This document shows, piece by piece, positions 1,125 through 52,453 of a stretch of DNA of 64,000 nt (the first letter of the stretch is position 1; every line of letters starts with the position of its first letter). The notes beneath the pieces were generated by a model. That model did no database searches, was not told the origin of the DNA, and worked only from the letters and a program-made list of their open reading frames with translations. Origin of the DNA: an uncultured Eubacteriales bacterium. Its GTDB lineage: Bacteria > Bacillota > Clostridia > Oscillospirales > Oscillospiraceae. The stretch spans positions 4,808 to 68,807 of the forward strand of contig URXY01000003.1 in assembly GCA_900552015.1 (NCBI GenBank), in the 5' to 3' direction. The translations under genes and the position numbers were made by a program.

Positions 1125-2590
1125 GCGCGGAAAAGAGCGAAAAGGGGGGGAGCGCCGTGCCGGAGAACAGAAAAAGCTTCGTTTCGGCACTGCACATCCG
1201 CGGCCTTCGCGAGCGCTGGCTCTTCAGTGCCGCGCTGCCCATTTTGCTGCTGCTGGTGCTGGCGGTGGCGATGTTCAGCATCGGCGTGCAGGAATACTAC
1301 TATAACGCGATGCGCTCGGGCCTTGAGAGCCGGGCACGCATCGCGGCGGAGACCTTTTCGGGCTACGGCGTGAAGAGCTACAGCGAGTATTACCGCCTTG
1401 CCTCCTACTCGGCCGAGACCTTTGAGGAGAAGGACACGATCGAGCTGCAGTTCATCAACACGAACGGGCGCGTGCAGGTCTCGTCCTACGGGCTGACGGC
1501 GGGCACGCTGCCCGGCACGAGCGACATTGACGAGGCTGTCGGCGGCGAGATGGCGTTCTATCAGGGGCGCGACCCGCAGACGGGGGAGAATATCCTCGCG
1601 GTGTCATACCCGCTGTACTTCAATTCCCGCGTCGTGGGCGTGCTGCGGTATGTGACATCGCTGCGCGAGGCGCAGCACCGGGTGCTGATGGATTCGCTGC
1701 TCGCATCGGCCGCGGCGCTCGTGTGCATGGTGCTCATCGCGGCGTCGAACGCCATCTTCATCAACAATGTCGTCGAGCCCGTCGCCGTCGTGAGCGACGC
1801 GGCACGGCGTATCTCGGGCGGCAGCTACGGCATCATGATCGAAAACCGCTACCGCGACGAGCTCGGCGAGCTGGTCGACAACATCAACGATATGTCGATG
1901 AAGATCAGCCAGGCCGAAAAGATACAGCAGGAGTTCATCTCGTCGGTCTCCCACGAGCTGCGAACGCCGCTCACGGCCATCAGCGGCTGGGCGGAGACGC
2001 TGAGTGTGGACCCCGGCAGCAACCTGGAGCAGACCAAGCGCGGCCTCGGTATTATTTTGAAGGAATCGCGCCGCCTCACCACGATGGTCGAGGAGCTGCT
2101 CGAATTCACCAAGATGCAGGACGGGCGCTTCACGCTGCGCGTGGAGAGCGTAGACCTTGCCAGCGAGCTCGAGGATGCGGTCTACACGTATTTTGAGCTT
2201 TTTAGGCAGGAGGGCATCGAGGTCTGCTACACAGGTCCCGACGACGATATCCCGCCCATCGTGGCGGACAGCGAGCGCATGAAGCAGGTCTTCTGTAATG
2301 TGCTCGATAATGCCGCCAAGCACGGCGGCAGCGGCAAGCGCATCGACGTGAGCGCCGCGCGCGAGGGGAACAGTTTCGTTATCCGCGTGCGCGACTACGG
2401 CCCCGGCATCCCGGAGGCGGAGCTGCCGTTCGTGAAGCAGAAGTTCTACAAGGGCTCGTCCAAGGCACGCGGCAGCGGCATCGGCCTTGCTGTGTGCGAC
2501 GAGATCGTGCACCTGCACGGCGGCACGTTCGACATCGCGAACGCCGACGGCGGCGGTGCAGTCGTGACCATCGCACTGCCGATACAGTAA
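1112..2590 (+). CDS. sensor histidine kinase (TM sensor, HisKA, HATPase_c)
   Basis: H-box SHELRTPLTAISGWAETL. N/G-boxes (LDNAAKHGG ... GSGIGLAVCDEIVHLHGG). Two TM segments near the N-terminus. Overlaps the regulator stop by 13 nt (operon coupling). Confidence 0.9.
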   Translation: MERVSAEKSEKGGSAVPENRKSFVSALHIRGLRERWLFSAALPILLLLVLAVAMFSIGVQEYYYNAMRSGLESRARIAAETFSGYGVKSYSEYYRLASYSAETFEEKDTIELQFINTNGRVQVSSYGLTAGTLPGTSDIDEAVGGEMAFYQGRDPQTGENILAVSYPLYFNSRVVGVLRYVTSLREAQHRVLMDSLLASAAALVCMVLIAASNAIFINNVVEPVAVVSDAARRISGGSYGIMIENRYRDELGELVDNINDMSMKISQAEKIQQEFISSVSHELRTPLTAISGWAETLSVDPGSNLEQTKRGLGIILKESRRLTTMVEELLEFTKMQDGRFTLRVESVDLASELEDAVYTYFELFRQEGIEVCYTGPDDDIPPIVADSERMKQVFCNVLDNAAKHGGSGKRIDVSAAREGNSFVIRVRDYGPGIPEAELPFVKQKFYKGSSKARGSGIGLAVCDEIVHLHGGTFDIANADGGGAVVTIALPIQ

Positions 2591-2607
2591 GAAGAATAGA
2601 ACGGGTG

Positions 2608-2636
2608 TTGCATTTTTGAAATGCCCGTGGTAAGAT
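2608..2636 (+). promoter_or_regulatory. sigma70-like promoter TTGCAT-17-TAAGAT upstream of DUF1385/prmC
   Basis: Hexamers read directly with 17-nt spacing. Located in the HK/DUF1385 intergenic region. Confidence 0.4.
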
Positions 2637-2662
2637 ATCGCATAGAAAAAGGAGAACCGTTC

Positions 2663-3625
2663 ATGGCAAAAGAAAATGTGCCCGCACCGAAGTTCCGCAC
2701 GAGCATCGGCGGTCAGGCATTGATCGAAGGTATTCTGATGCGCGGACCCGGCAAGCAGGCCATCGTCGTCCGCTCGCCGGAGGGCCTTGTGGAAAAGGTC
2801 GAGGAGCTGACGCTCGTGCGCGATAAGTATCCCATTCTGGGCCTGCCCGTCATCCGCGGTGCGGTGACATTCGTCGACTCGATGGTCAAGGGCGTCAAGG
2901 CGCTGATGTTCTCGGCAGATTACTTCCCCGATGAGGACCTTGCCGAGCCGAGCAAGTTCGACCAGTGGCTTGAAAAGAAGTTCGGCAGTGAGAAAATGTC
3001 GAAGTTCATCACGGCCCTTGCGGTCGTGCTGTCGCTGGGGCTGACGATCCTGCTCTTTTTCCTGCTGCCGACATTTCTGGCAGGGTTCATCGACCCGTTC
3101 ATCAAGAGCGTGACCATCCACAATCTGATCGAATCCATCATCAAGCTCATCATCTTTTTCGGATATTTGCTGCTCTGCTCCAAGCAGAAGGACATTTACC
3201 GCGTGTTCCAGTACCACGGGGCAGAGCACAAGACCATCTTCTGCTATGAGGCGGGCCTGCCGCTGACGGTGGAGAACTGCCGCATCCAGCCGCGCCACCA
3301 TCCGCGCTGCGGCACGAGCTTCCTCTTCGTGGTCGTGGTCGTGTCCATCCTCGTTTCGAGCGTCGTGTTCAGCTTTGTCGAGTGGCGCAACATCTGGGTG
3401 CGCATGGGGTTGCACCTGCTGCTGCTCATCCCCATCGTGGGCGTTTCCTATGAGTTCAACCGCTACGTCGGCGGACACGACAACAAGGTGACGCGCTTTT
3501 TGGCGCGTCCGGGCCTGTGGCTGCAGAACTTCACCACCAACGAGCCCGACGACAGTATGCTCGAGGTCGCGATCCGCGCGCTCGAGCTGGTCATTCCCGA
3601 AGAAAAAGGCAAGGATGCGTGGTAG
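2663..3625 (+). CDS. DUF1385 (YqhQ-like) membrane protein
   Basis: Start chosen at ATG 2663 with RBS AAAGGAGAA 7 nt upstream (the track ORF begins earlier at an alternate codon). Polytopic hydrophobic core. Family typically sits upstream of prmC. Confidence 0.7.
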   Translation: MAKENVPAPKFRTSIGGQALIEGILMRGPGKQAIVVRSPEGLVEKVEELTLVRDKYPILGLPVIRGAVTFVDSMVKGVKALMFSADYFPDEDLAEPSKFDQWLEKKFGSEKMSKFITALAVVLSLGLTILLFFLLPTFLAGFIDPFIKSVTIHNLIESIIKLIIFFGYLLLCSKQKDIYRVFQYHGAEHKTIFCYEAGLPLTVENCRIQPRHHPRCGTSFLFVVVVVSILVSSVVFSFVEWRNIWVRMGLHLLLLIPIVGVSYEFNRYVGGHDNKVTRFLARPGLWLQNFTTNEPDDSMLEVAIRALELVIPEEKGKDAW

Positions 3626-8199: not shown

Positions 8200-8233
8200 T
8201 CCCGACATTTCATCTTCTCAAAGGAGAGCTATC

Positions 8234-9688
8234 ATGTATTTATACAATTCCGCGACCCATAAAAAGGAAGAATTCAAGACCCATACGCCGAACCATGTGG
8301 AGATGTACACCTGCGGCCCCACCGTGTATCACTTTGCCCATATCGGCAACCTGCGCTCCTACATCATGGAGGACGTGCTGGAAAAGTACCTGCGCTTTTC
8401 AGGCTACAGCGTGAACCGCGTGATGAATATCACCGACGTCGGCCACCTGACGAGCGACGCCGACGAGGGCGAGGACAAGATGGTCAAGGGAGCCAAGCGT
8501 GAGCACAAGACCGTCATGGAGATCGCCAAGTTCTATACCGACGCGTTCTTCGCCGACTGCAAGAAGCTCAACATCAAGCGCCCCGACGTCGTCCAGCCCG
8601 CAACGGGCCTGATCGACGATTATATCAAGATCATCACGAAGCTGCTCGACACCGGCTATGCCTATATCGCCGGCGGCAATGTGTACTTCGACACGAGCAA
8701 GCTCGAGCGCTACTATATCTTCAACGACCACAACGAGGAAGACCTCGCCGTCGGCGTGCGCGAAGGCGTGGAGGAGGACGAGAACAAGAAGAACAAGAAT
8801 GACTTCGTTCTCTGGTTCACCAAGTCCAAGTTCGAGGATCAGGCGCTCAAGTGGGATTCCCCCTGGGGCGTCGGCTATCCGGGCTGGCACATCGAGTGCT
8901 CCGGCATTTCGATGAAGTACAACGGCGAATACCTCGACCTGCACTGCGGCGGCGTGGACAACGCCTTCCCGCACCACACGAACGAGATCGCGCAGAGCGA
9001 GAGCTACCTCGGTCATCCCTGGTGCCTCCAGTGGTGCCACGTGGCGCATCTCAACACCTCGCACGGCAAGATGTCCAAATCCAAGGGCGAATTTTTGACG
9101 GTCTCACTGCTTGAGGAAAAGGGCTATGACCCGCTGGCGTACCGCTTCTTCTGCTTACAGAGCCACTACCGCAAGAGTCTTGTCTTCACGTGGGAAAACC
9201 TTGACAATGCGGTCGCCGCGTACAACAAGCTCATCGCGAAGATCGCGAACATCAAGGACGAGGGCGGCGTGGACGAGGCCGTTCGCGCCGAGTACCGCGC
9301 GAAGTTCATGAAGGAGATGGACAATGACCTCAACACCGCCATGGGCGTGACCGCGCTCTACGATGTGCTTAAGGCCAAGACCACGGGCGCGACGAAGCTC
9401 GCCATCATCGGCGACTATGACACGGTGCTGAGTCTTAACCTTCTCAAAAAGGCCGAAGCCGAGCGCGAGAAGAAGGAGAAGGCCGCGTCCCAGCAGAGTG
9501 CGGGCGGCTTCACGGTCGTCTCTGAGGATGGCACGGCGGACGAGGGCATCGAGAATCTGATCCGCCAGCGCGCGGAGGCCAAGAAGGCGAAGAACTTCGC
9601 CGAGGCCGACCGCATCCGCGACGAGCTCAAGGCGCAGGGCATTGAAGTGACCGATATGCCCGGCGGCGCGAAGTGGAAGCGCGTGTAA
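8234..9688 (+). CDS. cysS: cysteine--tRNA ligase
   Basis: Class I HIGH motif (FAHIGN) and KMSKS (KMSKSKG). Start ATG 8234 with RBS AAGGAGAG. Confidence 0.95.
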   Translation: MYLYNSATHKKEEFKTHTPNHVEMYTCGPTVYHFAHIGNLRSYIMEDVLEKYLRFSGYSVNRVMNITDVGHLTSDADEGEDKMVKGAKREHKTVMEIAKFYTDAFFADCKKLNIKRPDVVQPATGLIDDYIKIITKLLDTGYAYIAGGNVYFDTSKLERYYIFNDHNEEDLAVGVREGVEEDENKKNKNDFVLWFTKSKFEDQALKWDSPWGVGYPGWHIECSGISMKYNGEYLDLHCGGVDNAFPHHTNEIAQSESYLGHPWCLQWCHVAHLNTSHGKMSKSKGEFLTVSLLEEKGYDPLAYRFFCLQSHYRKSLVFTWENLDNAVAAYNKLIAKIANIKDEGGVDEAVRAEYRAKFMKEMDNDLNTAMGVTALYDVLKAKTTGATKLAIIGDYDTVLSLNLLKKAEAEREKKEKAASQQSAGGFTVVSEDGTADEGIENLIRQRAEAKKAKNFAEADRIRDELKAQGIEVTDMPGGAKWKRV

Positions 9689-47980: not shown

Positions 47981-49420
47981 ATGGCAAATGAAACAAGCAC
48001 TGCCGTCATTCAGCTTCCCAAGGGCAAAAAGAACCTCGTTCAGTTGGGCGCTATTTGCCTGACCGTTTCCATCGCGTGCTACGGTCTTGCGCTGTCCACG
48101 CTCATCACACCCATCCTCTCCAGCATGGACGCCATGGGCTATGTTGGCCTGTTTTCCATTTTTTCCTCGATCGGCATCACCATCATGACGCCGATCGGCG
48201 GCAAACTCGGCGATATCTTCGGCCGCAGACGGATCGTAGTCATCGCAGGAATCGTCTGTGTGCTGTGCGGCGTCGGCATCGCGTTTGCGCCAAACCTGCC
48301 GATCTTGATGATCTGCCGCTTCGGTGTTGGCTTTGCGCAGGGCGCGTTCATGGCCGCGCCATACATCATCGTCGGCGTCATCAACGAGAAAAAGGACGTG
48401 CCGAAGGCGATGGGCTTTCTGGCGATGGCGCTGTCCATCGGCGGTTTCGGCGGCAGTATCGTCGCGGGCCTCCTGACCGATATGGGGATGCTGACGGCGG
48501 CTATTCTCTTCCCCGCGATCCCGCTGATCGTCGGTATCGTGCTGATAGGCCTGTTCTATCCCGATGATAAGAGCGCCGCCAAGCAGAAGATCGACACGGT
48601 GGGCATCCTGCTGCTCGTGGCCGCGCTGTGCGGCATCCTGCTGCCGCTGAACTACGGCGCGACCGCCGGCTGGACGGATCCGCTGATCCTCGGCGGGCTC
48701 GTGCTGGGCATCGTTTTCACCGCGCTGCTGATCCGCTATGAGTCCAAGATCGAGCAGCCCATCATTCCCGTCAAGATGTTCCGCCACAAGAGCTACCTTG
48801 CCTTCGTGCTCGTGGGCTTCCTGTGCTACTTCTACCGCGGCGCGATGGACGTTTATTCGCCCCTCGGCGCGATCAATGTCATGGGCACCAGCACGACGAC
48901 CGCGGGCTCGCTGCAGTTGCCGCGCACCATCGTGACGATGTTCCTGCCGGTCATCGCGGGCGCGTGGGTCGGCAAGAAGAGGGTCAACCTGTGGAAGGCT
49001 ATGGCCATCGCCACCGCGCTTGCCGCCTTCCCGATGCTCGCGATGGGCTTTACTACGCCACAGACGTCCGTACTGCTGTACTTCATCGCGCTCACCATCA
49101 CCGGCGTTGCCGAGAGTTACCGCGGCGTGTCCGTCACGCCCGCCGCACAGGGCTGCCTGAAGACAGAGGACATCGGCATCGGCACAGCGCTCGTGAACTT
49201 TGCGAACTCGCTGGCGGGTTCGCTGGCCGCAGCCATTTACGGTATGATCTACGGCGCCTGCACTGCCGCTGACCCGACCAACGTCGCCAACATCCAGAAG
49301 GGCGTCAACGCCGTTTTCCTGACGGCCGGCGGCGTCACGGTGGTTGGTCTTCTGCTGGTCCTCTTCTGGGTCCGTCCGCTGATCGAAAAGCAGGCCCGCG
49401 AGGAAGTGCAGCAGGCCTGA
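47981..49420 (+). CDS. MFS transporter (14-TM drug:H+ antiporter-like)
   Basis: MFS signature between TM2-3 (GGKLGDIFGRRRI). About 14 TM. Confidence 0.85.
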   Translation: MANETSTAVIQLPKGKKNLVQLGAICLTVSIACYGLALSTLITPILSSMDAMGYVGLFSIFSSIGITIMTPIGGKLGDIFGRRRIVVIAGIVCVLCGVGIAFAPNLPILMICRFGVGFAQGAFMAAPYIIVGVINEKKDVPKAMGFLAMALSIGGFGGSIVAGLLTDMGMLTAAILFPAIPLIVGIVLIGLFYPDDKSAAKQKIDTVGILLLVAALCGILLPLNYGATAGWTDPLILGGLVLGIVFTALLIRYESKIEQPIIPVKMFRHKSYLAFVLVGFLCYFYRGAMDVYSPLGAINVMGTSTTTAGSLQLPRTIVTMFLPVIAGAWVGKKRVNLWKAMAIATALAAFPMLAMGFTTPQTSVLLYFIALTITGVAESYRGVSVTPAAQGCLKTEDIGIGTALVNFANSLAGSLAAAIYGMIYGACTAADPTNVANIQKGVNAVFLTAGGVTVVGLLLVLFWVRPLIEKQAREEVQQA

Positions 49421-49452
49421 GGAAAGAACCCTAGTATCCTGAGATCGATAGC

Positions 49453-49503
49453 AAAAAAGCAGCAGCGGCCGACTTATTACGTCAGGCGCTGCTGCTTTTT
49501 TGC
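49453..49503. terminator. bidirectional terminator
   Basis: A6, stem GCAGCAGCG / CGCTGCTGC, T7. Confidence 0.7.
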
Positions 49504-49783
49504 GGCCTTTGCGGCAGTATCAGAAATGAGTGTGTTCCGCGATGAGGTCGTTGACAGTCGTATCCAGCATGACGCTCAGGACGTAGAAGTTATCCACACT
49601 CGGCAGGCTTCGACCCGCCTGCCGGTGGTACACCGCCTGTGGGCAGGCAGCGCCATCTGCATGATATAAAAAGCAAATTGTAGTTGAAATTATGAGAAAA
49701 TGTGATATATTTAGAACAATACCAGTGAAAACGAGGTGTGTGCCGTGAAAAAGAACTTGACATCGCGCTTCGCGGTGCAATAC

Positions 49784-49855
49784 TGCTGAGAGCAGAGCAG
49801 AGCAGAGCAGAGCAGAGCAGAGCAGAGCAGAGCAGAGTAGAGTAGAGTAGAGTAA
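49784..49855. repeat. pentanucleotide tandem repeat (GCAGA)x9 followed by (GTAGA)x3
   Basis: Read directly at 49791..49850. Lies about 150 nt upstream of the surface-protein start codon. Confidence 0.9.
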
Positions 49856-49904
49856 GTAAAGCTCTGCGCTTTTTTGCTGCCAAAAATTATTATTTTGTAA
49901 TAGA

Positions 49905-49950
49905 AGACACTCCCTGACATGGGTTATCCATGCCAGAGGGTGTCTTTTTA
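49905..49950 (+). terminator. imperfect long hairpin followed by TTTTTAT in the 5' leader of the surface-protein gene (attenuator-like)
   Basis: GACACTCCCTGACATGG-GTTATC-CATGCCAGAGGGTGTC then a T-run. Lies about 50 nt upstream of ATG 50000. Confidence 0.4.
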
Positions 49951-49999
49951 TTTATCATTCAGCCCGCGGAGACGGGTAGAAAAACAGGTGGAAAGAAAT

Positions 50000-52453
50000 A
50001 TGAAAAAACGATTATGCTCAATATTGTTGGGGTTATGTCTTGTTTTGACAATGCTGCCGACAATGGCACTGGCGGCAGACGGTGGGGATGGAACACAGGC
50101 AAATCCCTGGAATATTTCTGCCGAGGGTGAGGGAAACAACGTTACGGCCTATCTAGAGCAGAACGACGATGGTCCTACCTATACGCTCGTCATCTCCGGC
50201 TCCGGAGCAATGAAAGATTTCAAATTCTCGTCACCCTCAGGATATTGGACATCGGATGCTCCTTGGCATACTGCGTTGACAGTAGATTCCTCAATAAATA
50301 GATACCCGATCACGGCTCTGGAAATTGAGGATGGCATTACTCATATCGGCAGCGCTGCATTCGCATCTTTGTCCATTCCGGAGATTTCTTTCAAACGGAA
50401 CGTGACAAGCTATGGCACGTACGTATATATTTCCTGCACAGCCGTGACGACTGTCGACTGGACGAATTTCAGCATCGAGACGATTCCGGAAGGTCTTCTG
50501 TATGGGTGCACTGCGCTGCGCACGTTCAAAAATGGCGACGCAGTCTCCGCTGATTACACGTTGATGCTTCCGAGCGCTGTGACAGGAATTGGGACGAGTG
50601 CTTTCTTTGGGTGCAGAAGTCTGATCCGTGCTGATTTGACGAACCTGTCCAAAAGCGTAGGGCAGAATGCATTTATGTCCTGCACGGGCCTGAAGCAGGT
50701 TGATTTGCCCAAAACTGTAGATGAATCCTGCGTGGACAGTTATTTTGGAATTGGCTGCTTCAGCACCTCGGCAATCGAGACCATTACTCTGCCGGAAAAT
50801 GTCACAATGATTTCGAATAATATGTTCAACCGGTGTGGTTTGCTTACGGATGTTAAGACGACCAGTTCTATCAAAACGATTGGAGAAACAGCATTTTTCT
50901 GCGACAAAGATAGTGTGGGGAAGACAGAGGCTCCTTGGAGTTCTTTTGTTGGTACCAATTTGGATCTCAGCGGCGTTACAACGATTGGAGCGTCTGCGTT
51001 TAACACTTGTTCTTCTCTCAAGAACGTGATTCGTCTTGATTCGATCCAGAATTTAGGCGAGCGGGCTTTTGGCGACTGCTCCTCCGTTCAGGTCGTTGAT
51101 ATGAGTAAAGCTGGCGAATCGATTACTTGTGCAAGTGACGCATTCACACAGCTAGGAAATGACTCCGTTATTTATATCGCGAATAATTTGAGTTCTTTGA
51201 CGGGCCAATATGAAGGCATTTATTCGAAGAATAAGACGGTGCTCGCCATTACTAATGGCGGCACATTCCCGGCCACGTCCCAGTTCGTCGCGGGCCAGCT
51301 TGCCGAGCCGGTCAAGGGCGGCTATAAATTCGAGGGCTGGTATGAAAGCGCCACATTCGAAGATGAGGCCCTTACGGGCACACCGATTGCTGGCAAGACC
51401 TACTATGCCAAGTGGGAAGAAAAGGCCGAGCAGTCCGCGCCTGCAGCGCCTACGCTGAAAGACCGCGGCTATACCAGCATCACCCTGGAAACCATCGAGG
51501 GCGCTCAGTACCGGTGCAACGGCGGCGCTTGGCAGACCTCCCCGGAGTTTACCGGCCTGACCGCCGGAACGGTCTACACCTTCGAGACCCGCTATCCCGA
51601 AACGGAGGATCACAAGGTGTCTCCCGTCAGCGATGCGGTAGAGCTTTCCACCTTGTATTATGTTGTGCCCTCTGTCTCGAGCAACAGCGTTTCCGCGCCC
51701 TCTACCCCCAACGGCACCGTGACCGTCTCTCCGGCCAACGCTTCTAAGGGTACGACCGTGACCGTCGCGACCAAGCCTAACGAGGGCTATGAGCTCGGCA
51801 GTCTGACCGTGACCGACGCAAACGGCAACGCGCTTGCCCTCACCGATCTCGGCGATGGCAAGTACAGCTTTGTGATGCCAGGCAGCAAGGTCAGCGTCGA
51901 GGCGAGCTTCGTCAAGACCGCGGTCTCTACCGGCTTTGCCGATGTCCCTGCGGATGCTTACTTTGCCGACGCGGTCAAGTGGGCCGTTGACAAGGGCGTG
52001 ACGAACGGTCTGACCGACACGATGTTCGGCCCCTATGAGCCCTGCACCCGCGCGCAGATCGTCACCTTCCTGTGGCGCGCAGCCGGTTCTCCCGAACCGA
52101 CCAGCACCAGCACGTTCGCTGACGTTCCCGCAAGCGCCTACTATGCCAAGGCGGTCGCTTGGGCGGTCGAGAACGGCATCACGGACGGCATGACCGCGAC
52201 GGAGTTTGCTCCCAACGCCACCTGCACGCGCGGCCAGAGCGTGACCTTCCTGTATCGCGCCCTCAAGGGGACCGCCGGCAGCGGCGCGAGCTTCGGTGAT
52301 GTTGCATCCGGCGCATTCTACGCCGATGCGGTCAACTGGGCGGTCGCGAGCAACGTGACGAACGGCACGTCCGACACCACGTTCTCTCCCGACGCGAGCT
52401 GCACCCGCGCGGAGATCGTGACGTTCCTGTATCGTGCCTATCAGGGCAAGTAA
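50000..52453 (+). CDS. S-layer-anchored surface protein: signal peptide, BspA-type leucine-rich repeats, Ig/FN3-like spacer, three C-terminal SLH domains
   Basis: Signal peptide MKKRLCSILLGLCLVLTMLPTMALA. Repeated LRR_5-like units (IGSAAF..C..L..V.LP). Three SLH repeats (FADVPADAYFADAVKWAV..GVTNG; FADVPASAYYAKAVAWAV; FGDVASGAFYADAVNWAV). Confidence 0.85.
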   Translation: MKKRLCSILLGLCLVLTMLPTMALAADGGDGTQANPWNISAEGEGNNVTAYLEQNDDGPTYTLVISGSGAMKDFKFSSPSGYWTSDAPWHTALTVDSSINRYPITALEIEDGITHIGSAAFASLSIPEISFKRNVTSYGTYVYISCTAVTTVDWTNFSIETIPEGLLYGCTALRTFKNGDAVSADYTLMLPSAVTGIGTSAFFGCRSLIRADLTNLSKSVGQNAFMSCTGLKQVDLPKTVDESCVDSYFGIGCFSTSAIETITLPENVTMISNNMFNRCGLLTDVKTTSSIKTIGETAFFCDKDSVGKTEAPWSSFVGTNLDLSGVTTIGASAFNTCSSLKNVIRLDSIQNLGERAFGDCSSVQVVDMSKAGESITCASDAFTQLGNDSVIYIANNLSSLTGQYEGIYSKNKTVLAITNGGTFPATSQFVAGQLAEPVKGGYKFEGWYESATFEDEALTGTPIAGKTYYAKWEEKAEQSAPAAPTLKDRGYTSITLETIEGAQYRCNGGAWQTSPEFTGLTAGTVYTFETRYPETEDHKVSPVSDAVELSTLYYVVPSVSSNSVSAPSTPNGTVTVSPANASKGTTVTVATKPNEGYELGSLTVTDANGNALALTDLGDGKYSFVMPGSKVSVEASFVKTAVSTGFADVPADAYFADAVKWAVDKGVTNGLTDTMFGPYEPCTRAQIVTFLWRAAGSPEPTSTSTFADVPASAYYAKAVAWAVENGITDGMTATEFAPNATCTRGQSVTFLYRALKGTAGSGASFGDVASGAFYADAVNWAVASNVTNGTSDTTFSPDASCTRAEIVTFLYRAYQGK

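Follow-up and report, generated by a model that had tools for sequence, protein, structure and literature searches.

A hypermutable GCAGA tract in the leader of an LRR/SLH surface-protein gene of an uncultured gut Oscillospiraceae bacterium: probable core of a leader-peptide/terminator switch, in an allele with a closed leader ORF

The stretch of DNA analyzed here (the window, 64,000 nucleotides of contig URXY01000003.1 from an uncultured Eubacteriales bacterium of the Oscillospiraceae) contains a gene for a large secreted surface protein with leucine-rich repeats (LRR) and three S-layer-homology (SLH) domains. The 5' leader of this gene carries a pentanucleotide tract, (GCAGA)9(GTAGA)3, that is hypermutable among conspecific contigs and is followed by two terminator-like hairpins. 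We consider it probable that the tract is the hypermutable core of a phase-variation switch in which a leader peptide and a terminator act together, and that the allele found in the window is closed and locked in a low-expression state. The mechanism is most likely of the known leader open reading frame (ORF)/anti-termination type, and not one of promoter spacing or hairpin strength.

The tract ends 148 nt upstream of the LRR_5/SLH gene and is the highest-scoring tandem array that Tandem Repeats Finder reports for the 64 kb (49789-49852, period 5, 12.8 copies, 98% matches), with a score of 107 against 52 for the second-best array. A 15-nt repeat probe (GCAGAGCAGAGCAGA, up to two mismatches) has 10 matches in the window, every one of them in the tract; the chance expectation is 0.28, and the count of 10 is reached in none of 100 shuffles. 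The composition of the tract and its placement in a surface-protein leader, at 49792-49851, agree with the original prediction, which had been made from the letters of this DNA. A 69-aa minus-strand ORF that the gene finder calls across the tract was rejected as a gene: it has no Pfam hit, and its length varies with repeat number across contigs (64, 69, and 121 aa).

Conspecific human-gut contigs were obtained by exact look-ups of the LRR protein and of the MFS transporter protein encoded upstream of it. The LRR protein was matched in the form of an 800-aa gene call; an exact look-up with the 817-aa version found no record, and a first metagenome scan that used the flank of the proximal hairpin (T1) as query gave no matches. 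On near-identical flanks, these contigs carry tract alleles with 9+3, 4+3, 7+2, 6+2, 4+1, 7+0, and at least 10 units (GCAGA + GTAGA), so that the GCAGA run comprises 4, 6, 7, 9, or at least 10 units and the GTAGA run 0, 1, 2, or 3. Contigs L029 and L031, and likewise L031 and L032, have no mismatches over 956 + 3805 nt of flanking sequence (4761 nt), yet differ in having 5 vs 9 units, which indicates that the tract is hypermutable. The original prediction had classed the repeat as a slipped-strand device and proposed that metagenomes be compared for repeat-number heterogeneity; that comparison bears it out, with totals of 5, 7, 8, 9, and 12 units among conspecific contigs on near-identical or identical flanks.

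At least six contigs end inside the tract. MEGAHIT, metaSPAdes, and Logan assemblies repeatedly break within its 25-64 nt, as seen at the ends of L002-L005, L010, and L035. These breaks were considered as proof of within-sample heterogeneity and rejected, because the k = 31 Logan assembler would itself break there.

The tract is embedded in a leader that contains promoter-like sites, a short ORF with its own Shine-Dalgarno (SD) sequence, and hairpins (Table 1). Promoter-like site P1 lies upstream of the leader ORF, is invariant in sequence among all conspecific alleles, and is a candidate promoter of the leader mRNA. P2, a good sigma-70-type match and the best promoter match of the region, adjoins the repeat. 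Its TTGACA element had been placed at 49756 in the original prediction; the element is present and pairs with TG-n-AATACT, and its position is 49757-49762. The -10-like hexamers of P2 and P1 precede the start of the tract by 7 nt and 80 nt, respectively. Variation in promoter spacing, one of the two switching mechanisms first suggested, does not suit this layout, in which the repeat follows the -10 hexamer and does not lie between the -35 and -10 hexamers of either P1 or P2. The weak site P3 is a possible basal promoter of the LRR gene, of doubtful status. No equivalent of P3 was seen in homologous leaders when the alignment was inspected by eye, without a separate scan; this apparent lack of conservation suggests that transcripts of the gene originate upstream and must pass both hairpins.

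The first of these, T1, forms between the repeat units (GCAGAGC or GTAGAGT) and GCTCTGC at 49861-49867, and folds with -17.8 kcal/mol (z = -1.7). The second, T2, has a folding energy of -25.2 kcal/mol (z = -5.2), and none of 200 shuffled sequences folds equally well. Both had been anticipated, T1 as a terminator-like hairpin made from repeat units and a downstream T-run and T2 as a second hairpin and T-run ahead of the start codon. Each ends in a T-run, and both are predicted to terminate transcription. When the leader is modeled with 0 to 12 GCAGA units plus up to three GTAGA units, the energy of T1 stays between -17.6 and -22.1 kcal/mol once at least three units are present, and the folding of T2 is unaffected by repeat number. 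The idea that repeat number changes the geometry of T1 and thereby tunes attenuator strength is not supported by these nearly constant energies. One folding series with a misbuilt junction (AGC+GCAGA) produced an artificial GCGCAGAGC stem and was discarded. Rfam gives no family for the region in E-value mode or for the whole window at gathering thresholds.

The leader ORF, which encodes VKKNLTSRFAVQYC, is closed in the window. A 1-nt difference before the tract, TACTGCTGA instead of TACACTGA, creates an in-frame TGA at 49787-49789. Past the GCAGA run, the GTAGA units add a TAG to each of the three frames, at +1, +6, and +11. Two haplotypes occur directly 5' of the tract: CAATAC-TGCTGAGA/TGCTGACA, the window type, and CAATAC-ACTGAGA, represented by L002, L004, L005, and L034. 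In the sister allele L034, which has the ACTGAGA haplotype with seven units and no GTAGA, a 48-aa leader ORF reads through the repeat, crosses T1, and ends at a TGA within the 5' arm of T2.

Open versions of the leader ORF are also found in homologous leaders. Those of L086/L141/L114, L088, and L043 align with the window leader from the SD through the ribosome-binding site (RBS) and present the elements in the order SD-GTG, TTGACA, ..TACACTGAC, GCAGA tract, T1, T2, small hairpin, RBS. The SD is conserved in L086 and L141 as GGAGGTG-N6-GTG, and a T1 equivalent follows the repeat in L086/L141/L088/L043. The outer stem of T2 varies in sequence (GACACTCCCTG.. vs GACGCTTTCAAG..) while its pairing is kept, with compensatory changes at 5 of the 12 pairs across seven homologous leaders. 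Downstream of the L141 and L088 leaders lie genes for LRR_5 + SLH proteins, and the L088 protein shares 54% identity with the window protein over its C-terminal part. In L086/L141, the corresponding ORF (VKKNLTSRFAVQYTDG..) continues into the tract; L088 and L043 have the matching ..Y-T-D-S-R-A-E-Q.. frame, opened by a start codon 25 nt ahead of the tract. All five of the homologous-family leaders checked besides the window (L141, L088, L043, L242, and L082) have one exit frame that stops 4-8 nt past the tract; the remaining two frames stop 48-89 nt downstream, several of them within the loop or 3' arm of T2. Open-ORF families keep one frame, their alleles being apart by multiples of three units (7, 10, 10; 7, 10, 13; and again 10 in L111), as against the closed-ORF window lineage, whose alleles of 12, 7, 9, 5, and 8 units cover all three frames. 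Some tracts are interrupted: L114 reads (GCAGA)10 GCTGA GCTGA (GCAGA)3 at 8207-8257 and the following bases, and L128 (25-65) contains a GCACA unit. In L111 and L128, the tract-T1-T2 module precedes unrelated sequence.

A separate upstream promoter-like site is present in 9 of the 14 leaders of this class checked besides the window. L086, L141, L114, L043, and L088 additionally carry a cyclic di-GMP (c-di-GMP)-I riboswitch of family RF01051 (47-71 bits) between the upstream promoter and the repeat module. The aptamers sit about 105-130 nt upstream of the GCAGA tract, each with its own promoter-like site before it. In L086, an anti-SD, CCTCTTCTGC, can be read that could pair with the SD of the leader ORF, GCAGAAGGAGG, which suggests that the riboswitch acts on leader translation there. 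No c-di-GMP-I (GEMM-I) aptamer was found in the window by Rfam at gathering or E-value thresholds.

The intact design of the proposed switch is drawn from the sister allele L034 and the homologous leaders L086, L141, L088, and L043. A leader mRNA would be made from the upstream promoter, and a ribosome would start at the SD/GTG and translate across the GCAGA tract, so that every 5-nt unit gained or lost would shift its exit frame. In one frame, the ribosome would meet a stop a few nucleotides past the tract, T1 and T2 would form, and expression of the surface-protein gene would be low. In the other two frames, the ribosome would cross T1 and stop inside T2; the hairpins would then be blocked and transcription could enter the gene. 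That leader translation relieves termination is proposed by analogy with the pil1 pilus operon of Streptococcus gallolyticus (Danne et al. 2014, PMC3894217). In the window allele, the TGA at the end of the leader ORF and the TAG in every frame would keep the ribosome from crossing the tract. The closed ORF and the stop-bearing GTAGA units predict a terminated allele that is locked low, as in the engineered "3 STOPs" mutant of pil1. Repeat-number changes in this allele are probably neutral and would represent mutational noise rather than switching.

Several observations weigh against this reading. The strong P2 motif lies inside the leader ORF, and transcripts made from it as the main promoter would lack the leader start codon. 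T1 alone is only marginally better than shuffled sequence. Two exit frames that remain open for about 50-90 nt are barely above chance in AT-rich sequence, and the test of frame conservation involves few distinct alleles, with an estimated p of about 0.04 when distinct alleles only are counted. The closed-ORF haplotype occurs in about 10 samples, compared with about four samples with an open ORF. Finally, the LRR gene is intact in the closed-ORF haplotype and under purifying selection, with dN/dS of 0.23-0.39 between alleles and 0.37 for a pair of closed-ORF strains. The gene must accordingly still be expressed to some extent, perhaps through terminator read-through or from P3, and "locked low" may be too simple a description. 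That the LRR gene is still expressed somehow behind a closed leader ORF is the main uncertainty of this interpretation.

One rival reading is a neutral relic, in which the tract and hairpins are left over from a former switch or an upstream transcription unit and the LRR gene is transcribed from the proximal P3, unaffected by the repeat. The closed leader ORF with its accumulated GTAGA units, the unit numbers in all three frames, the promoter-like site overlapping T2, the continuing purifying selection on the gene, and the rearranged region upstream of the leader, with a truncated XRE-like fragment and no riboswitch, would all be expected of a relic. Nevertheless, we regard it as improbable, since P3 is weak (9/12) and has no equivalent visible by eye, without a scan, in the aligned homologous leaders, and since every conspecific allele retains P1, the SD, T1, and T2 in intact, near-identical form. 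The relic and the locked allele overlap largely, the sole difference being where LRR transcripts start. The original prediction is itself a rival in its version of a transcriptional rheostat, according to which transcription starts at P2 and repeat number makes the 5' leader longer or shorter or alters its structure, with consequences for how efficient T1 or how stable the mRNA is. Its effects would be graded and would need no leader peptide, as with the AGAT tract of uspA2. P2 is the best promoter match of the region (10/12 plus TG), the repeat does supply the 5' arm of T1, and repeats upstream of ORFs that modulate mRNA level are known (the uspA2 AGAT tract and the nadA TAAA tract). The near-independence of T1 energy from unit number argues against a rheostat, however, and the conserved T2 is still downstream, whatever T1 does. 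It would also leave the SD and start codon leading into the tract, the upstream promoter, and the five riboswitches of the homologues unneeded, and it appears unlikely to us.

A protein-binding repeat RNA is still less plausible, and we give it very little weight. A short RNA from P2 to T1 would contain (GAGCA)9(GAGUA)3 and a following GAG, that is, 13 GAG triplets spaced by 2 nt, and would be bound in the manner of the Bacillus ring protein TRAP, which recognizes (G/U)AG-N2-3 arrays. A bound protein would cover the 5' arm of T1, or the RNA would titrate the protein; the affinity would depend on the number of repeats. The GAG periodicity is directly readable in the sequence, and P2, tract, and terminator make up a self-contained unit, both in the window and at 10 or more other loci. 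On the other hand, (GCAGA)n is clearly a frame-shifting device inside ORFs, where in-frame and out-of-frame alleles are mixed, and a perfect tandem array with length polymorphism is the product of slippage, whereas natural TRAP sites have variable spacers. Rfam gives no matching family, and we know of no TRAP-like gene in these lineages. A leader-peptide/terminator switch remains the preferred reading. Of the phase-variation interpretation first put forward, what stands is a hypermutable contingency-type repeat, with the pentamer of a proven switch, in an attenuator-bearing surface-protein leader; promoter spacing and hairpin strength do not.

Table 1. Positions of the leader elements and neighboring features in the window, and of related features in other contigs
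Feature	Location	Strand	Remarks
Bidirectional terminator after the MFS gene	49451..49503		26-nt-arm inverted repeat, A6/T6 flanks
C-terminal fragment of an XRE-type HTH gene (..AVYHRQAGRSLPSVDNFYVLSVMLDTTVNDLIAEHTHF*)	49520..49650	-	N-terminal half missing in all frames
P1, TTGAAA-16-TG-n-TATATT	49684..49711	+	10/12 matches + TG extension; upstream of leader ORF
SD of leader ORF, GAGGTG	49733..49738	+	6 nt before GTG; read from sequence
Leader ORF, VKKNLTSRFAVQYC*	49745..49789	+	GTG start at 49745; TGA 49787-49789, 2 nt before repeat
P2, sigma-A-like TTGACA-16-TG-n-AATACT	49757..49784	+	10/12 plus TG; adjoins repeat, inside leader ORF
(GCAGA)9 hypermutable microsatellite	49792..49836	+	Sequence, Tandem Repeats Finder, probe scan
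(GTAGA)3, C-to-T variant units	49837..49851	+	TAG in all three reading frames
T1, terminator-like hairpin	49831..49878	+	5' arm = repeat units; 3' arm GCTCTGC, then GC and T6
T2, long hairpin, apical CATGG..CCATG, then TTTTTATTTAT	49902..49956	+	Hairpin part 49902-49948
P3, weak ATGCCA-17-TATCAT	49930..49958	+	9/12; overlaps T2
Small 5'-untranslated-region hairpin, CCCGCGGAGACGGG	49962..49977	+	-7.7 kcal/mol; directly upstream of RBS; also in homologues
Gene for secreted BspA-type LRR/Flg_new/3xSLH cell-surface protein, 817 aa	50000..52453	+	Pfam domains
RF01051 aptamer	L086 4285-4374	+	
RF01051 aptamer	L141 6305-6394	+	
RF01051 aptamer	L114 623-712	-	
RF01051 aptamer	L043 3933-4007	-	
RF01051 aptamer	L088 3922-3996	-	
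(CAGA)n tracts with promoter-like motif	L077 11274; L149 2217 and 6422; L188 2578; L192 7647	CAGA strand	0-based
(CAGA)n tracts with promoter-like motif	L209 11648; L217 10854; L231 1235; L240 6239; L243 279	CAGA strand	0-based

The surface protein itself conforms to the original prediction. The 817-aa product has a signal peptide, LRR_5 (3.5e-39) and Flg_new domains, and three SLH domains (1.4e-31). Upstream lie a gene for an M20 peptidase and then the MFS transporter gene (47981-49420), which is followed by a bidirectional terminator; the 3' arm of the latter, GCTTTTTTGCGGCC, resembles the T1 tail GCTTTTTTGCTGCC at 49868-49881. An 86-aa minus-strand ORF at 49520-49780 is XRE-like only in its C-terminal half and was set aside as a gene fragment that is not part of the element. 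The fragment marks a rearrangement boundary at about 49655, and the AT-rich leader starts at about 49660. The 5' half of the LRR gene (50001-51000) has 48% G+C, compared with about 59-62% for the window. The nearest species-level genome, from an uncultured Oscillospiraceae with a 90% identical MFS protein, has no LRR gene downstream of MFS (L011 5414-6351), and a scan of genome contigs with the MFS neighbor did not find a conspecific genome. The low G+C of the 5' half and the absence from the nearest GTDB species suggest that the LRR gene is a lineage-specific insertion. The leaders of the paralogous LRR/SLH genes P0005 and P0027 contain no simple sequence repeat (SSR); an SSR leader is therefore not a general trait of the gene family. 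In L036, a paralogous LRR/SLH gene (71% identity) has the small hairpin CAGCCCGCGGAGGCGGGC and the RBS region at 1150-1215 without repeat, T1, or T2. Since the part in common starts at the small hairpin, the switch module joins the gene just upstream of 49960.

The pentamer is not confined to leaders of this kind. When metagenome contigs were scanned for exact matches to (GCAGA)6 and viral contigs for (GCAGA)5, each collection yielded at least 120 contigs, and dereplication of the upstream flanks gives 104 clusters among the matches listed (L038-L277), to which the counts below refer. The clusters fall into three contexts, namely inside ORFs, at the 5' end of ORFs, and in non-coding leaders. 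In the first, the tract (2127-2186 in L220) lies inside a phage C5 DNA methyltransferase gene (1364-3013; ENV, QNRER, and RECGRLMG motifs), and a protein family starting ALIKLLQYVFGY past the tract belongs here as well. Many of these gut phage contigs come from IMG/VR sample 3300045988, and the methyltransferase gene is apparently split over several frames, which suggests either a phase-variable phage gene or long-read indel errors. A second SSR, (AGTA)5-6 / (TACT)5-6, occupies a conserved position in the same phage family (L159, L161, L166, L172, L179, and about 18 other viral loci).

In the second context, the tract begins 4-10 nt past an ATG or TTG that has an SD before it. The N-termini, judged by eye without a Pfam search, are acyltransferase_3-like in L038, L042, L068, L069, L077, L085, and L093, and AMP-ligase-like in L130/L149; L040/L063 likewise have (GCAGA)n after the start codon. 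L149 has eight units and is in frame while L130 has 10 and is out of frame, and such a mixture of in-frame and out-of-frame alleles is the classical pattern of translational phase variation. In the third context, the tract is followed by a hairpin with a 3' arm complementary to the repeat and a T-run, usually by a second hairpin and T-run, and then by an RBS and a large secreted protein. Pfam assigns these proteins LRR_5 + SLH (L141, L088), SpaA and a thioester domain (L095), Flg_new + BACON + ricin lectin (L155), and Big_2 (L242) domains.

Many of the tracts share a promoter-like motif. In 42 of the 104 clusters, TTGAC begins at a distance of 30-38 nt before the first GCAGA; composition-matched shuffles average 0.6, with a maximum of 4 in 1000 trials, adjoining 9-nt windows give 0-3, and the reverse-complement motif occurs twice. 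A -10-like hexamer (A2, T6, at least 4/6) follows at a spacing of 16-18 nt in 32 of the 42 (3.3 in shuffles), and an A-rich tract precedes TTGACA. The overall layout is A-tract, TTGACA, 16-18 nt, -10-like hexamer, C-yTrAGA, and (GCAGA)n. The -10-like ACAATC is offset by one nucleotide between the L074 and L164 phage clusters; it would accordingly be read in two frames within the phage methyltransferase ORF, which points to a constraint at the DNA level. These loci also contain 14 (CAGA)n tracts, nine of them with TTGACA 31-34 nt upstream and three more with TTGCA (Table 1). Because the SD and/or start codon lies upstream of or within the motif, the promoter would give no translatable downstream mRNA in any context. 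Any conserved role would then have to do with the repeat itself: transcription into the tract could raise slippage, a repeat RNA could be made, or sigma-dependent pausing could couple ribosome and polymerase.

A more speculative view, which we put forward with considerable doubt, is that the tract is a copy of a promoter-plus-repeat module, previously undescribed and widespread among gut Firmicutes and their phages, that ends in (GCAGA)n or (CAGA)n and, separately, that in the leader family of the window a stochastic repeat switch and a c-di-GMP-I riboswitch are wired in series by way of a leader ORF with a sequesterable SD. If so, the module could be, for example, a built-in local mutator, in which transcription starting at the tract raises slippage, or a maker of repeat RNA. 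The series wiring, for its part, would combine signal-responsive with heritable-random control of an adhesin.

Within the literature searched, the only genes described as having a GCAGA leader-peptide switch are two pilus operons, both of a single Streptococcus species, and searches on SSRs in gut Firmicutes found nothing relevant besides that leader-peptide/terminator work (PMC3894217). The same pentamer now appears before large surface proteins of BspA-LRR/SLH, SpaA/thioester, Big_2, and BACON/ricin types in uncultured gut Clostridia, and also at the 5' ends of acyltransferase_3-like genes, inside a phage DNA methyltransferase gene, and in some leaders coupled to c-di-GMP riboswitches. The leader ORF is open in some natural strains and closed in others. 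Together, this offers a testable, metagenome-based prediction of surface antigens that are ON, OFF, or locked in gut commensals, and such tracts also explain the recurrent contig breaks at GCAGA loci. For the window itself, the message is modest: the repeat is real and unstable, and it probably no longer controls the gene.

Among known systems, Moraxella catarrhalis uspA2 with (AGAT)n and Neisseria meningitidis nadA with (TAAA)n likewise have a strain-polymorphic SSR upstream of an adhesin start codon. These differ in that their effects on transcription or on the spacing of a regulator are graded and involve neither a leader peptide nor a terminator, whereas the succession of SD, ORF, tract, T1, and T2 in the window and its homologues points to a frame-dependent mechanism. 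Neisseria opa (CTCTT)n and Streptococcus pyogenes sclB (CAAAA)n are pentanucleotide repeats at the 5' end of coding sequences. With a five-nucleotide unit every slip changes the frame, and other (GCAGA)n loci share this design; the window tract, in contrast, lies outside the surface-protein ORF and is separated from it by stop codons. In the Escherichia coli trp leader, as in the proposed switch, formation of an intrinsic terminator depends on the position that a ribosome takes on a short leader ORF. There, that position is set by the supply of charged tRNA, and here it would be set by a heritable repeat frameshift; an alternative antiterminator hairpin, as in trp attenuation, was not identified in the window leader.

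The nearest parallel is offered by the pil1 and pil3 pilus operons of S. gallolyticus, which have 22 and 13 GCAGA repeats, respectively, within a leader-peptide ORF, with a stem-loop terminator downstream of it (Danne et al. 2014, PMC3894217). Transcription start sites are mapped upstream of the leader ORF, and unit numbers that give a longer peptide, with a stop at or within the terminator, result in high pilus transcription. The effect depends on translation, being abolished by chloramphenicol, and switching occurs at about 5 x 10^-3 per cell per generation. The model was tested in pil1 with an RBS/ATG mutant (ATG*), with "3 STOPs" constructs that have stops in all three frames after the repeats, and by deletion of the terminator. 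Every "3 STOPs" mutant has a homogeneous profile (Fig. S6 legend), and the delta-term strain is referred to as a Pil1+ locked mutant (PMC3894217).

The window shares with pil1/pil3 the identical pentamer, in tandem repeats, in the 5' leader of a surface adhesin-type gene, an intrinsic terminator, here predicted in the form of T1 and T2, and a strain-variable repeat number, which differs even between contigs with identical flanks. P1 would be suitably placed for a start site upstream of the leader ORF, and P2 lies inside it. A tract within a short SD-bearing ORF, with stops just past the tract or inside the terminator, is present in the open-ORF relatives L034, L086, L141, L088, and L043. In the window, the repeats lie outside the leader ORF, and no alternative exit frame is available, as all three run into a TAG in the GTAGA units; the closed ORF resembles the engineered "3 STOPs" mutant. 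There are further differences. The host belongs to the class Clostridia (the nearest genome being an uncultured Oscillospiraceae) and not to Streptococcus, the target is a BspA-LRR/SLH protein instead of a sortase pilus, and the tract has 5-12 units instead of 13-26. Two predicted terminators stand in tandem, the first with the repeat as its 5' arm, whereas the pil1 terminator lies 39-49 bp after the stop codon of the wild-type leader peptide and that of pil3 lies 33 bp downstream of the leader ORF. The leader start codon precedes the tract by 47 nt, a promoter-like motif lying between the two, and relatives of the window leader carry an upstream c-di-GMP-I riboswitch. By analogy of their parts, the window element is probably related by design to the pil1/pil3 switch.

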